From: a virus
Reading direction: 5' to 3' (one strand)
DNA length: 64,000 bases
IMG/VR virus record: IMGVR_UViG_3300027864_000003
Below the pieces are notes generated by a model. The model ran no database searches and was not told where the DNA came from. It saw nothing but the letters and a program-made list of their open reading frames with translations. Position 1 is the stretch's first letter; each line of letters starts with the position of its first letter. Position numbers and translations under genes: made by a program. Below are positions 3,027 through 7,959 of this stretch, piece by piece.

Positions 3027-3310
3027 ATTGAGATTTTCGGAAAAAATAAAAAAAAAGTTAGTTTTTCTGACTTTTATGTTGACAATTATTTTAATGTTAG
3101 TTAGACTAACATATAAGGGAGCCAAAAGTTCCCCCGCCGTCTGGTGTACATGGTTCTCCCAAAGCTCCATCGAACAGACGGCTAATTAGGAAATAAGTCT
3201 TGTGTGCGCAGGACGAGAAAGCGATCAAATTTTTTAGGTTGGTTGACGGCGCACACCGTTGACCGTTATAGCCTGAAGAGTTTGATCGTTTTTTTTTTGC
3301 GGAGGAGTTT

Positions 3311-3553
3311 ATGGGAACGAAAAAAGTTATGCCGTCTACAAGCCCAGTACGAGGGGTGCTGATAACCCTTGAGGTAGCGGAGCAAAAAACAGGCATGAGT
3401 AAGGCGTGGTTTTACCTGCGAATGAGGACAGGCACTTTACCATTTCCTTGGTTCATGCCATCCGCCGGCAAACGTCTCGTTGACTCCGCAGATGTAGATG
3501 ATTGGCTTGAGTCAATCAAAGTTCCTACTGGGGGTGTGCCAATGAAAAAGTAG
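3311..3553 (+). CDS. AlpA/excisionase-like HTH protein
   Basis: ITLEVAEQKTGMSKAWFYLRMRTGTLP...RLVDSADVDDWL; GGAGGAG SD. Confidence 0.75.
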   Translation: MGTKKVMPSTSPVRGVLITLEVAEQKTGMSKAWFYLRMRTGTLPFPWFMPSAGKRLVDSADVDDWLESIKVPTGGVPMKK

Positions 3554-3643
3554 CAAATGATTATTGCCGTAAAAAGCGGGGGGCTTGGATTTGATATTTC
3601 CTATTCGCCCCCGCAACAAAAAAAACAAATCATGGGGGAATAG

Positions 3644-3769
3644 TGAGCGGTAAAGACAATTGGATATATCTTAGGTATTTAATAGACAGTTACCGGGATA
3701 AAAAAATATCGAAATACAAATTTATGTACGAATGGCATTGTGTTCAACTGGCAATGAGGCTTCGTTAAT
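3644..3769 (+). CDS. 41-aa hypothetical protein (GTG start), coupled to rusA
   Basis: Hand translation MSGKDNWIYLRYLIDSYRDKKISKYKFMYEWHCVQLAMRLR; TAATG overlap with the rusA start. Confidence 0.45.
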
Positions 3770-4157
3770 GAAAACACAGTATCAGTTATTTATTGAAGGC
3801 ATACCCAAAGCGCAGCCGCGCCCGCGCCTTGCGAATAACGGTAAAGTTTTTAATCCGCATTCTGCTGACGCATGGAAACACCAAATAATAGCGGCTTTCC
3901 TTGACTGTCGGCGCGAAACAATTACAACACCTGTTAGATTGAATATTCAATTTTACTTTCCAGCCCCTAAAGAAATGGAAATAACAGAAGATGTTCCGCA
4001 TGACAAAAAACCAGATACAGATAATTTAGAAAAAGCTGTTATGGATGCAATAACCAATGCTGGTATTTGGAAAGATGATGCCCAGGTATACGACTCGCAT
4101 TCAATCAAAATGTATACCCGCGGTAAAACCGGAGCGCGAATAAAAATCGAAGCGTAA
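3768..4157 (+). CDS. rusA: RusA-family Holliday junction resolvase
   Basis: IEGIPKAQPRPR...KKPDTDNLEKAVMDAITNAGIWKDDAQV motifs. Confidence 0.9.
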   Translation: MKTQYQLFIEGIPKAQPRPRLANNGKVFNPHSADAWKHQIIAAFLDCRRETITTPVRLNIQFYFPAPKEMEITEDVPHDKKPDTDNLEKAVMDAITNAGIWKDDAQVYDSHSIKMYTRGKTGARIKIEA

Positions 4158-4175
4158 TGCTTCAAGGAGGAAATT

Positions 4176-4826
4176 ATTAAGACCGTACAGAATAAAGAAC
4201 CAGCTGTCGAAAATGTTCAGCCCGTTATCGATGAAAAAATTGTTGACACTGTATTTGATATTTTCAGTACAGTAACAAAACTTAACGCCCTGCAGGATTG
4301 CTTTGAAGATTTGGGAAATCGCCTTATCGCGGATCTGAAAGCCAATTCTTTCATGCAGTTTGATCTTGAATTGAAAGAAGATCAAAAAGAACAGCTCCGC
4401 AAGGCGATCAAAATTAAAGGCAATGAAGTTGTCAGGGATTATCTTGCAAAGGTTAATTCCGATGAACGCACCAAAGAAATTTACGATATTGTCCGCGAGA
4501 AAACAACCGCTATTTCAGATACAGTTCTTGCCGCTATCGGCGCGGAAATAAATCGCGGCGCCATAATCAACGCTATTGCGGTTCAAGCGAACGCAAAGAG
4601 CGAAGAATATGACGAAATTCTTCTGCGTAAAACAAAAACATCCGGAGACATAACAATCCCGACAAACTGTATTCTCCTCTCCACAAATTGCGTATCTGTT
4701 GTTAAAGCATCATGCCAGACAGAAAAGGAAGATGAAAAGAAAAAAACAACAGAGAAAAAACTCGTTAAGAAAACGAAAACGGAAAGAGTCGCGGCGGATA
4801 AACCTGTGAGGAGACCAAAGAAATGA
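4176..4826 (+). CDS. hypothetical protein, probable non-canonical ATT start
   Basis: Frame is open from 4158; AAGGAGG at 4164-4170 precedes ATT at 4176; first canonical start is TTG at 4311. Confidence 0.6.
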   Translation: MKTVQNKEPAVENVQPVIDEKIVDTVFDIFSTVTKLNALQDCFEDLGNRLIADLKANSFMQFDLELKEDQKEQLRKAIKIKGNEVVRDYLAKVNSDERTKEIYDIVREKTTAISDTVLAAIGAEINRGAIINAIAVQANAKSEEYDEILLRKTKTSGDITIPTNCILLSTNCVSVVKASCQTEKEDEKKKTTEKKLVKKTKTERVAADKPVRRPKK

Positions 4827-5068
4827 AAAAGAAAAACAATAAAACTCCGGGTGAAATGCTGCTTGAACAAATCCAAAAAAAAAACACAAACATTAACGCC
4901 GTATCGAAAGAAATTGGTGTCAGCCAAACGGCGCTTCGTTTGGTTTCTCTTGACGAAGCCAGGATAACAACACCAATTGCGGTGAAGCTTTCCGAATATT
5001 TCAAGGTACCAGCAAGGAACTGGTTAACAGTGCAGATGGAATACGATCTGTCTTTTTATGATTTGTAA
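4823..5068 (+). CDS. HigA-like XRE HTH protein
   Basis: TPGEMLLEQI...VSKEIGVSQTAL...ARITTPIAVKLSEYFKVPARNWLTVQMEYDL matches the HigA antitoxin pattern. Confidence 0.8.
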   Translation: MKKKNNKTPGEMLLEQIQKKNTNINAVSKEIGVSQTALRLVSLDEARITTPIAVKLSEYFKVPARNWLTVQMEYDLSFYDL

Positions 5069-5075
5069 AATTTGC

Positions 5076-5147
5076 GGCAGGGTGAAGCAACGGCGGCTTA
5101 TGTGGCTCATCACCACAATGTCAGAGGTTCAAACCCTCTGCCTGCCC
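5076..5147 (+). tRNA. tRNA-Met(CAT), atypical
   Basis: Cloverleaf: GGCAGGG/GCCTGCC acceptor (7:66 mismatch), AAGC/GCTT D stem, TGTGG-CTCATCA-CCACA anticodon arm, AGAGG-TTCAAAC-CCTCT T arm. Confidence 0.8.
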
Positions 5148-5164
5148 GAATGCCATTAACAAAA

Positions 5165-5360
5165 GTGGCGGACAAAGAGTGCCGTCTGTCTCGCTGGTGA
5201 GAGTAACCAGCTCGCTTCTGGTGTAGGCGTGAAATAAAACCAGATATTTTGCGCGGTATAGAAAATTGCGCTAACGGGTAGCAAACGGTATGCGGTTTGT
5301 CCGGGGTGGCATTAAGCAGCAACCACAGGTAGAACCTGTTTCGGCGGTATGTCTGTGGTG
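5165..5360 (+). ncRNA. GC-rich structured intergenic RNA (five consecutive hairpins) inside the tRNA cluster
   Basis: Stems 5193-5198/5206-5211, 5217-5222/5239-5244, 5251-5256/5266-5271, 5281-5286/5295-5300, 5322-5328/5353-5359; no credible ORF. Confidence 0.5.
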
Positions 5361-5366
5361 ATTTTT

Positions 5367-5491
5367 GGGGATGTCGTATAACGGCAGTATCGATTTCGTG
5401 GAAGTATCGCCCATAAACGCGGATAAAGGCGAAAGGTAAACGATAACGAGGTATCCTCCTCGTGGCGCAGGTTCGACTCCTGCCGTCTCCA
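5367..5491 (+). ncRNA. tRNA/tmRNA-like RNA (125 nt) with G3:U70 pair and expanded anticodon region
   Basis: Acceptor GGGGATG/CGTCTCC-A, D-arm-like GTAT-AACGGCA-GTAT, T arm GCAGG-TTCGACT-CCTGC, extra hairpin ACGAGG/CCTCGT. Confidence 0.65.
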
Positions 5492-5493
5492 TT

Positions 5494-5577
5494 GGGTTAG
5501 TAGTTTAGTGGTAGAACATGGCGGTTTCCTTGAAACCTCCTTTACGCCAGACGGCGGTTCGACTCCGTCCTAATCCA
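5494..5577 (+). ncRNA. tRNA-like RNA (84 nt) with G3:U70 pair and 21-nt anticodon loop
   Basis: Acceptor GGGTTAG/CTAATCC-A, D arm GTTT-AGTGGTA-GAAC, stem TGGCG/CGCCA, T arm GGCGG-TTCGACT-CCGTC. Confidence 0.7.
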
Positions 5578-5602
5578 GTCACTAAATTTATTGGAGGTTG
5601 TT

Positions 5603-6529
5603 ATGTCAAATGTTTTATTTAACAGAGGAATTAAGGCGTTAAATGATGCCGGATTCCAAGTCGTGGGCTGTACTCGTAAGCCGAATTCGAGAGTGTTCAA
5701 GTTCAAGGTAACTCCTGACGGTCCGCCGCCGAAAGAAGAAGATCCGGGCTTGAAAATAATTGCAACGATTTTTGAAAAATCGCTTGAAGAAACAATCGGA
5801 AAAAGAACCGATAAACCTTGCGAGAAGCAAAGCGAGAACCAGATCGAAAAGCCCATACGCTTTCCAAAAGAAAATTTTAACATCATGCGGTTATTGGGCA
5901 CTAATGATTGGCACTATCATATCGCAAAAATTCAAAACCTTGCAAAAAGCGAAAAAACAGAGCTGTTTGAAATCGGTGATTATACTCTCGTATCTTTTGA
6001 AGTTCCCGCGGCAGAACATAATGGCGTTAAATTCCCTGCGCTTAAAATTGAAAATGCCAAAGTTGTGATTGTTGAAAAAACTTCTAACAGGGTGATTTTC
6101 AATTTTGATGAAATCATTTTCAAAGCGGCGATAAACGCAAAAGACACAAACAAGGGCGGCATCAGCGAAAGCGCATTGTCATCATATCTGAACAATGAAG
6201 TTCTTGAAGCAATGGGAGTAAAAGAATTTCTTGTTTCCGCAAATAACGGTACAAAAATTACATTGCCGACTGCTTATGAGTTATTCGGCGAGACAGAATA
6301 TTGGGAATCAAAATCCAATTTCTTTGAAGAACCGCGTCAGTTTGATTACTTCAAAAACGAAAAAAATCGCGTGAAAACTTTTGAAGATGAAACGCATTGG
6401 TACTGGACATCATCACCTTGCGCTGCGTCCTCCGCTGGCTTTGACAGTGTCTACGCCGACGGAGATGTCAGCAACAACGACAACGCGAGTTCCGTCGGTG
6501 GCGTTGCCCCCGCCTTCTGTGTCGCGTAG
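5603..6529 (+). CDS. DUF6273-like / C-type-lectin-fold protein, candidate DGR target
   Basis: C-terminal LPTAYELFG...WYWTSSP...SVYADGDVSNNDNASSVGGVAPAFCV; GGAGG SD before ATG 5603. Confidence 0.7.
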   Translation: MSNVLFNRGIKALNDAGFQVVGCTRKPNSRVFKFKVTPDGPPPKEEDPGLKIIATIFEKSLEETIGKRTDKPCEKQSENQIEKPIRFPKENFNIMRLLGTNDWHYHIAKIQNLAKSEKTELFEIGDYTLVSFEVPAAEHNGVKFPALKIENAKVVIVEKTSNRVIFNFDEIIFKAAINAKDTNKGGISESALSSYLNNEVLEAMGVKEFLVSANNGTKITLPTAYELFGETEYWESKSNFFEEPRQFDYFKNEKNRVKTFEDETHWYWTSSPCAASSAGFDSVYADGDVSNNDNASSVGGVAPAFCVA

Positions 6530-7113: not shown

Positions 7114-7889
7114 AAGAAAAAATAAATACCATAAGCGCGGCAGTTAAAGAGGTAATTGATAATTATCCAATTGGTCATGAATTTTACGGTAATGAATTTA
7201 AAGATGATTGCGTAAAATTAGTTCCAGAAGCGATGGAGTCCTATGTTGACACCTTCCTAAAAATGGCGCGCCGGCATAGGCGCGATTCTTATATTTCAAT
7301 AGACCATAACAACAGCTTATATAAAAGAGTTAAATCTAACTATGAAATTGAACAAGAAAAAATAGAGCGGGAACGCGCTGAGGAATTAGCGAGAATTGAA
7401 GAGGAAAAACAATCAAGAAAAACCGAACAGATAAATCTTCCGTTTGCTCAGGGTTTTTTCGCTTTCTTTTTTGTTGTTTTTTTGGGTGCGGTTTTCGTTT
7501 TAGAATCGGGGTATGGGCGACCTCTTTTCCCGCCGTCTTTAATGGCTTCAAAGTCAGCTTCCCTATATATACCAGTAGCGCCTACAAAATCAAAAGGCTT
7601 TCTGCCTGCTCTTTTTAACCGTTGGTTAACTGCTGCTGTAGATATTCCAAGCCGTTTTGAAAAAACTAATAATGTTAATGGTGTTTCCATAACTCAAAGT
7701 ATATATAGAAAAAACATTGAAAATCAAGAGGTAAATGTTCAAATATTCAAATATTTAAACATTTATCTATACAGCCGTATAGTAAAAAATCACAATTTTT
7801 CAAAAATTTTTGAAAATTCTTTCAAGAACCTTGACAAGCCTCTAAGGCGGGGCTATTGTATTAGTATGTTTAAATGTTTAAATACTTAA
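7110..7889 (+). CDS. hypothetical protein; only the first ~115 aa look genuine, the rest is antisense to the 7448-7690 gene
   Basis: Composition shifts to F/V-rich antisense-like sequence after EQINLPF. Confidence 0.5.
   Translation: MKEKINTISAAVKEVIDNYPIGHEFYGNEFKDDCVKLVPEAMESYVDTFLKMARRHRRDSYISIDHNNSLYKRVKSNYEIEQEKIERERAEELARIEEEKQSRKTEQINLPFAQGFFAFFFVVFLGAVFVLESGYGRPLFPPSLMASKSASLYIPVAPTKSKGFLPALFNRWLTAAVDIPSRFEKTNNVNGVSITQSIYRKNIENQEVNVQIFKYLNIYLYSRIVKNHNFSKIFENSFKNLDKPLRRGYCISMFKCLNT
7448..7690 (-). CDS. small HTH DNA-binding protein with basic tail
   Basis: TLLVFSKRLGISTAAVNQRLKRAG HTH, RGRP motif, Lys-rich tail. Confidence 0.7.
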   Translation of the reverse strand: METPLTLLVFSKRLGISTAAVNQRLKRAGRKPFDFVGATGIYREADFEAIKDGGKRGRPYPDSKTKTAPKKTTKKKAKKP

Positions 7890-7903
7890 ACATTTAAACA
7901 TAC
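7733..7903. promoter_or_regulatory. divergent promoter/operator region
   Basis: TTGACA 7831-7836, N17, TATTGT 7854-7859; perfect 18-bp inverted repeat 7864-7881/7886-7903; related 14-bp inverted repeat (1 mismatch) at ~7733-7764. Confidence 0.7.
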
Positions 7904-7959
7904 GTGGCATCGGGGAAACCGACAGCCAATGGGCTCCACAGGAGCCAAAGGAGATTTTT

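Follow-up and report, generated by a model that had tools for sequence, protein, structure and literature searches.

Phage-borne transfer RNA (tRNA) genes are usually read as helpers in codon usage or as counters to tRNA-cleaving defences. Among the described RNAs closest to the locus studied here, transfer-messenger RNA (tmRNA, SsrA) has a length of approximately 260-430 nt, and small RNAs (sRNAs) of the RsaE/RoxS type carry C/U-rich seed loops which pair with Shine-Dalgarno (SD) regions. MALAT1 mascRNA and the gammaherpesvirus tRNA-miRNA (microRNA) units are tRNA-like processing signals, cut by RNase P and RNase Z. Plant mitochondrial t-elements are likewise documented as processing signals (PMC1920247). 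Here, we analyze two tRNA-shaped elements in a stretch of 64,000 nt (the window, W), taken from the minus strand of an IMG/VR virus record of 67.6 kb that is rated as complete (IMGVR_UViG_3300027864_000003, G000 in the following). Element 1 (5367-5491, 125 nt) and Element 2 (5494-5577, 84 nt) are located on the plus strand of the window, separated by 2 nt. Our preferred, still tentative reading of the compared sequences is that both are tRNA-derived RNAs of a non-coding array punctuated by tRNAs, in which Element 2 would be a tRNA scaffold displaying an anti-SD seed.

An earlier note on this DNA, made from its letters, had described the arms and stems of the two elements, and all of these features were recovered at the same positions. 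Element 1 has a tRNA shape derived from tRNA-Ala. Its acceptor stem GGGGATG/CGTCTCC is paired at all seven positions if G:U is counted (G:C, G:C, G:U, G:C, A:U, U:G, G:C), the discriminator is A5491, and the pair G3:U70 corresponds to G5369:T5488. D arm (GTAT-AACGGCA-GTAT) and T arm (GCAGG-TTCGACT-CCTGC) are present, and the place of a working anticodon arm is taken by about 70 nt with an extra arm and a hairpin with a 6-nt loop, ACGAGG-TATCCT-CCTCGT (5446-5463). Element 2 combines the fully paired 7-bp acceptor stem GGGTTAG/CTAATCC, with discriminator A5577 and G3:U70 at G5496:T5574, with the D arm GTTT-AGTGGTA-GAAC and the T arm GGCGG-TTCGACT-CCGTC; its stem TGGCG/CGCCA closes an enlarged anticodon loop of 21 nt and is followed by GAC. 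The T-loops of both elements are identical (TTCGACT), both D arms carry GG, and neither element has an encoded CCA.

Element 2 matched the Rfam model RF00005 with 45.6 bits (gathering cut-off 29), the alignment placing an insertion of 21 nt in the loop, while Element 1 reached 15.8 bits with its 3' part only and stayed below this cut-off. ARAGORN labels Element 2 as 'tRNA-Lys ctt', taking the triplet from the oversized loop. The claim of the earlier note that neither element has a usable anticodon is borne out: the loop of Element 2 comprises 21 nt and the hairpin loop of Element 1 6 nt, versus the 7-nt loop with U33 and a purine at position 37. The energies of single-sequence foldings were not unusual (z of -1.1 and -1.9 for the two elements), and both are judged to be real because of covariation in their homologs, not because of folding energy. 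These observations support the view that both elements are phage-borne tRNA-shaped RNAs unable to decode.

Related loci and contigs carry L-numbers in the following, and the host's family denotes the family of the Treponema sp. metagenome-assembled genome (MAG) G002, in which the related locus L132 resides. Loci were found by DNA pattern scans and mainly as homologs of the DUF6273 protein encoded downstream of Element 2. Exact and degenerate DNA scans for T arm and loop in IMG/VR, metagenomes, and genomes returned mostly reverse complements of ribosome-binding sites (RBSs) with start codons or chance matches; L002/L009/L131, L130, and L159 were the genuine members obtained in this way. The Element 2 family counts 14 members, all from phage contigs of termite-gut Treponema: the window, L002, L130, L132, L133, L134, L136, L137, L138, L139, L140, L142, L143 (cut off), and L225.

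The stems of this family covary as the earlier note had proposed to check. In a MAFFT alignment, 99.0% of the cells in stem columns are paired versus 83% after shuffling, and compensatory changes occur in 13 of the 19 pairs; none of 500 shuffles matched the observed value, and controls with slid partners gave 27-59% pairing. A model-fitted alignment of the 14 sequences agrees well with these values (98.4% paired, 14 of 19 pairs compensatory). No member deviates at A14, the D-loop G, T54, C56, or A58, and U8 is kept in at least 85% of the members, which argues that the L-shape is maintained. Judged from the covariation of acceptor, D, and T stems, we conclude that selection keeps the L-shaped tRNA body of Element 2.

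A covariance model of our own, R1, built from 11 Element 2 homologs, separates the family clearly, with 61-97 bits for members versus at most 39 bits for ordinary tRNAs. When 60 pattern matches in other bacterial genomes were scored with R1, none turned out to be a member except the Treponema MAG contig, and among the 151 searched genomes from the host's family, only G002, the MAG holding L132, had a copy. The phage GenBank collection that we searched gave 0 matches. Among host tRNAs, the top-scoring candidates for an ancestor of Element 2 were those for Lys, Pro, and Glu, without a clear winner.

The conserved part of Element 2 lies where a tRNA would carry its anticodon. The 21-nt loop GTTTCCTTGAAACCTCCTTTA (5524-5544, plus strand), enclosed by the TGGCG/CGCCA stem, follows a pattern present in 14 of 14 members, G-GUUUCC-N(2-7)-(C)CUCCUUU(W), inside a stem of 5-8 bp. 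Loop length varies between 11 and 22 nt across the family, CUCCUU is invariant, and an inner hairpin within the loop (GGUUUC/GAAACC in the window) occurs in some members and is missing in others. The segment ACCTCCTTT (5535-5543, plus strand) is identical to the anti-SD tail of 16S rRNA: in five genomes of the host's family the 16S 3' ends read GGATCACCTCCTTTCA and the genes end in GGAUCACCUCCUUUCA, such that ACCUCCUUU in the window is a copy of the host-family tail in 9 of 9 nt. In unconstrained RNAfold foldings, CUCCUUU is unpaired in six cases (L132, L134, L139, L140, L142, and the L136 arm); the first one or two C are paired in W, L130, L137, and L138, and part of the motif in L002 and L133. 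L225 contains a second, differently built tRNA-like unit (966-1040) with a degenerate D arm and the loop GUUUCCUCACCUCCUUUUU, which shares an 11-nt identity with the 16S tail (UCACCUCCUUU). From this conservation we conclude that selection keeps in the Element 2 loop a single-stranded pyrimidine motif, GGUUUCC...CUCCUUU, copying the anti-SD tail of the host 16S rRNA.

As an observation apart from the family, an unrelated IMG/VR contig (L206, 3662-3729, minus strand) carries an intergenic 68-nt hairpin of acceptor and T arm, with a 7-bp acceptor-like stem, GGTTCGACTCC, and the loop UUUCCUCCUCCUUU. It is a single sequence that Rfam does not match, and it might represent a further tRNA-like scaffold carrying a CU-rich loop.

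If the loop acts as a seed, mature Element 2 would be a stable tRNA scaffold whose loop pairs with SD or other purine-rich mRNA regions and modulates translation initiation, either in trans or, before processing, on the adjacent SD. Several observations weigh against this reading. CCUCC is changed to UCUCC in four members (L133, L138, L139, L142) and to ACUCC in L225. The 5' half of the loop, GGUUUCC, is equally conserved, and the anti-SD idea leaves it unexplained. The RBS of the adjacent gene matches the loop no better than other RBSs of the same phages, with ranks from first to last, and a target scan with the loop over window and array revealed no special or consistent target. Furthermore, an RNA directed against SD sequences in general would also strike the phage's own strongly SD-led genes. 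Finally, most loci were reached via the DUF6273 protein, hence the linkage of the family to this gene is partly a matter of ascertainment.

Two simpler readings of the loop were rejected. Cis sequestration of the SD of the DUF6273 gene is contradicted by the absence of preferential complementarity and of covariation between loop flank and SD flank, and if the minus strand of the loop is taken for an SD with its ATG, the resulting frame has only 4 codons in the window.

Instead of pairing with mRNA, the loop could titrate a protein or nuclease which reads the ACCUCCUUU tail, e.g., a factor that matures the 16S 3' end, a protein of the S1 type, or a toxin that inactivates ribosomes. The identity of 9 of 9 nt in the window and the 11-nt identity (UCACCUCCUUU) of the second L225 element speak for such a decoy. 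Nevertheless, we regard it as improbable: CCUCC is incomplete in the five members mentioned above, the elements have no linked gene that could be a partner, and the conserved GGUUUCC half has no counterpart beside the 16S tail.

The enlarged loops could also indicate tRNA genes that decay without function, or intron-bearing tRNAs which are spliced into decoders. Phage tRNA clusters are known to decay, and among the homologs of Element 1 mismatches occur in the acceptor pairs 5:68 and 6:67 of L225 and in the T stem of L133. The MAG G002 moreover contains two chromosomal tRNA-Arg(UCU)-like genes (L223 158-273 and L224 176-276; RF00005 54-56 bits) with anticodon-loop inserts of 31 and 46 nt, which extend the anticodon stem and whose flanks would rebuild CUUCUAA; a canonical tRNA-Arg(TCT) is encoded in the same MAG (L213 1369-1443), and the other 100 genomes of the host's family that were searched gave no match to the insert-bearing copy. 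These tRNA-Arg copies lend the splicing variant some plausibility. In Element 2, however, the stems covary and the loop is invariant, neither of which a pseudogene would show. Single internal deletions were applied to nine Element 2 homologs: none restores the canonical 7-nt anticodon loop with U33 and a purine at position 37 in W, L140, and L142, and none yields the same loop in the other six. An intron of the bulge-helix-bulge type does not fit either, as the 4-bp helix that GTTT/AAAC could form is followed by 8 unpaired nt rather than a 3-nt bulge, and the host is bacterial. Decay or splicing thus appears a poor explanation of these elements.

The ancestry of Element 1 can be traced more closely. 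Five syntenic homologs (L133, L136, L137, L139, and L225) follow the spacer RNA of the array, and in L133, L136, and L225 they precede the CCTGCGTTGCAGG hairpin. They score 37.7 (L133), 29.6 (L136), 52.4 (L139), and 49.3 bits (L225) with RF00005; L137 was identified by synteny and alignment, with no RF00005 match listed. Across the family, acceptor and T stems are paired to 92.7%, with compensatory changes in 6 of 12 pairs, while the centre varies freely, from 71 to 125 nt. The counterpart in L225 (1112-1182) is called as tRNA-Ala(TGC), with a normal 7-nt loop CUUGCAA, G3:U70, and A73. As far as this homology reaches, it demonstrates that Element 1 descends from a phage tRNA-Ala(UGC), of which the minihelix of acceptor and T arm was kept and the anticodon arm lost.

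This lineage bears on the model put forward by the earlier note, according to which both elements are alanylatable, non-decoding mimics or 'mini-tmRNAs' with a selected G3:U70 pair, acting as sponges or decoys for alanyl-tRNA synthetase (AlaRS), EF-Tu, SmpB, or anticodon nucleases. AlaRS ignores the anticodon; for this reason, a tRNA-Ala minus its anticodon arm such as Element 1 could still be charged, and an origin from tRNA-Ala(UGC) suits the model. The bacterial alanine identity set comprises A73, G2:C71, G3:U70, G4:C69, and G20 (PMC9976931). Both window elements have G3:U70 and A73, and Element 1 in addition G2:C71 and G4:C69; position 20 is C in Element 1 and U in Element 2, not G. Having the full acceptor-stem set, Element 1 of the window may thus be chargeable in this one phage.

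The homologs tell against a selected alanine identity. Of the 13 Element 2 homologs that include an acceptor stem, seven have A:U as pair 3:70, two G:C, two G:U (the window and L134), one U:A, and one another combination; the discriminator likewise varies, between A, G, and C. In the six members of the Element 1 family, G:U is present in W and L225, while L136, L137, and L139 have G:C and L133 has A:U. In tested systems, alanylation is lost once G3:U70 is replaced by G:C or A:U (PMC9976931). Taking the tRNA-Ala(TGC) of L225 together with the Watson-Crick pairs of the other homologs, the G:U of Element 1 in the window is an ancestral leftover; within this family, comparison of the homologs indicates that the identity pair is giving way to Watson-Crick pairs within a helix that is itself preserved. 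The two acceptors, which had been proposed to converge on one identity, do not do so: the pair was inherited in Element 1 and is one of two sporadic cases in Element 2. Hence the homologs retain the compensatory stem changes predicted by the earlier note and mostly lack the G3:U70 pair on which its model depends, and from the distribution of this pair alanine identity is not what selection keeps.

The 'mini-tmRNA' part of the model fares no better. ARAGORN called 0 tmRNAs, the best match to the Rfam tmRNA model reached 8.4 bits over a 17-nt T arm, and the insert of approximately 70 nt in Element 1 holds four TAA triplets and offers no room for a tag frame or pseudoknots. Together with the distribution of the 3:70 pair and the variable discriminator of Element 2, this makes the alanylated mimics a very unlikely account of the locus.

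Both elements are embedded in a larger non-coding array on the plus strand. Its first unit is a tRNA-Met(CAT) gene (5076-5147; found by ARAGORN, 39 bits with RF00005), which heads the same array in L133, L136, L137, L138, L139, and L225. It is followed by a structured spacer RNA of approximately 220 nt, termed X (5148-5366), which ends in a terminal hairpin (5323-5358) and a T-run (5362-5366). Homologs of X in L133 (2364-2581) and L136 (2318-2554) reveal a mean column identity of 81% and compensatory changes in at least three pairs; the shared features are a 7-bp stem with the loop AYAGAAA, a CAAWC/GWUUG stem, and the terminal hairpin with T-run. No Rfam family matched X at E<=10, and in L137, L139, and L225 a second, unrelated spacer type occupies its place.

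Where a locus holds several units, tRNA-Met comes first and is followed by a conserved structured spacer (about 200 nt), tRNA-like 1, additional hairpins, tRNA-like 2, and finally the DUF6273 gene. One of the middle hairpins has a constant loop UCCCCUCCCAAAUC on a covarying stem (CCAATAGT, CACGGT, CATAGT, CATGGT), located at approximately 2745-2785 in L133, 2813-2850 in L136, 2538-2572 in L138, and 1296-1330 in L225; its loop is another C-rich, SD-complementary motif within the same arrays. This hairpin is absent from the window, which has no middle spacer, and hence the two window elements touch. Another hairpin, CCCGGCA-GGGATA-TGCCGGG, precedes the 5' end of Element 2 by 3-5 nt in L130, L132, L133, L134, L136, L138, L140, and L142, a place occupied by Element 1 in the window.

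The array is followed by a gene of the DUF6273 family (Pfam PF19789; 5603-6529, plus strand), whose SD GGAGG (5593-5597) lies 15 nt past Element 2. Twelve of the 14 members have DUF6273 as the first gene past Element 2, and its start lies 13-20 nt past tRNA-like 2 in most loci; in L138 an open reading frame of 84 aa stands in between, and L141 carries no Element 2. By the gene order seen across these loci, the array is modular and carried by prophages of termite-gut Treponema just ahead of the DUF6273 gene.

A consensus scan of the plus strand revealed no sigma-70-like promoter in 3107-5619 and no terminator-like site in 4935-6497, the scan being so crude that the hairpin 5323-5358 with its T-run 5362-5366 escaped it inside the array. 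We propose that the array would be co-transcribed with the flanking genes and cut by RNase P and 3' tRNA processing at each tRNA or tRNA-like unit, and that the host would supply the CCA, which the units themselves do not encode. In this way they would serve as punctuation, freeing the spacer RNAs and the downstream mRNA.

Punctuation might in fact be their whole purpose, the tRNA-like bodies being nothing but signals for RNase P and 3' processing and stabilising ends, with functionless loops, as in the t-elements introduced above, whose role as processing signals is documented. The alternation of tRNA or tRNA-like units with structured spacers in W, L133, L136, L137, L139, L138, and L225 is in good agreement with this explanation, as is the variable centre of Element 1. 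Yet it requires neither the loop motif that is invariant over the 14 Element 2 members nor its recurrence in the second scaffold of L225, and we consider it unlikely.

Returning to the seed reading, a bolder version can be formulated. Element 2 would then represent a new class of phage RNA, consisting of a complete, RNase P-processable tRNA body in which the anticodon loop has been swapped for a copy of the 16S anti-SD tail; it would capture the SDs of mRNAs or titrate the readers of the 16S tail, re-programming translation initiation, and the array would turn out several small RNAs in the manner of an assembly line. We regard this version as possible, though rather doubtful as it stands.

Regarding the genomic setting, one end of the G000 record adjoins a host tRNA-Ala(CGC) (67539-67611, outside the window), which identifies the record as a prophage. 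In the relative G001, a tRNA-Gln(CTG) is found at the flank and its 3' part is duplicated at the opposite end. By this arrangement, the ends of G000 and G001 appear as typical attachment (att) sites. Debris of an att site, which the earlier note had named as a possible refutation, does not account for the elements: both are full length and located about 7 kb from the prophage end, and the host tRNA-Ala(CGC) at this distance resembles Element 1 only in generic letters of acceptor and T-loop. The data sets listed as containing DNA of the window are termite-gut metagenomes, and no RNA data set was among those listed. The genes near the elements are of early-region types, i.e., RusA, a helix-turn-helix protein, HNH, methylases, and ParB.

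The DUF6273 protein differs strongly from its L002 homolog in the C-terminal 40 residues. DUF6273 appears in papers on phage receptor-binding proteins hypermutated by diversity-generating retroelements (DGRs) and on DGR-rich prophages. A DGR link of the present gene, whose product is of a kind that DGRs target, was discarded, the 67.6-kb genome being devoid of a reverse transcriptase. Further downstream, the window contains iteron-like direct and inverted repeats of ATGTTTAAAT units (7727-7911), with a perfect 18-nt palindrome at 7864-7903; they may be an origin or operator.

For the interpretation of phage tRNAs in general, these findings imply that G3:U70, when found in one sequence only, need not be a selected identity but can be a fading remnant of descent, and that a phage lineage can keep the tRNA fold and give up decoding. 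If the loop truly acts on SD sequences or on factors binding the 16S tail, it would constitute a new viral route to translation initiation and a natural case of a tRNA scaffold used for making and stabilising a regulatory RNA. Our literature search found no description of a tRNA-like phage RNA bearing an anti-SD sequence.

Compared with described systems, Element 1 is closest to bacterial tRNA-Ala and its minihelices, with which it shares G1:C72, G2:C71, G3:U70, G4:C69, A73, and a standard T arm, in line with the L225 homolog being called tRNA-Ala(TGC). It differs in lacking a 7-nt anticodon loop and in carrying 50-70 additional nt, and the identity pair has been lost in 4 of the 6 family members. 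The elements resemble tmRNA in their T arm, in lacking an anticodon, and in an acceptor of the tRNA-Ala kind with G3:U70; in contrast to tmRNA, they measure 84-125 nt, possess a D stem, and carry no resume codon, tag frame, or pseudoknot.

YrlA and the bacterial Y RNAs (RF02553) are non-coding RNAs with a tRNA-like module as well, and are sometimes carried by phages, but in the window elements it is the acceptor stem that holds the RNA ends, rather than a long Ro-binding stem. Membership in this family was rejected: the match to RF02553 reached 26.7 bits versus a cut-off of 69, spanned the T arm of Element 1 and the D arm of Element 2, and had non-canonical 'acceptor' pairs. A TROVE/Ro gene (PF05731) is absent from the 67.6-kb genome.

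Like the t-elements (PMC1920247), both elements are tRNA-shaped, non-decoding units that lie inside longer transcripts and flank other RNAs; compared with such tRNA-like processing signals, their setting is a bacterial prophage, their processing is predicted, and Element 2 adds a conserved loop motif. With the RsaE/RoxS-type sRNAs, finally, Element 2 has in common a pyrimidine motif complementary to GGAG that is displayed by a stable structured RNA, whereas its targets are putative only, its scaffold is a complete tRNA fold, and its motif reproduces the 16S tail letter by letter.
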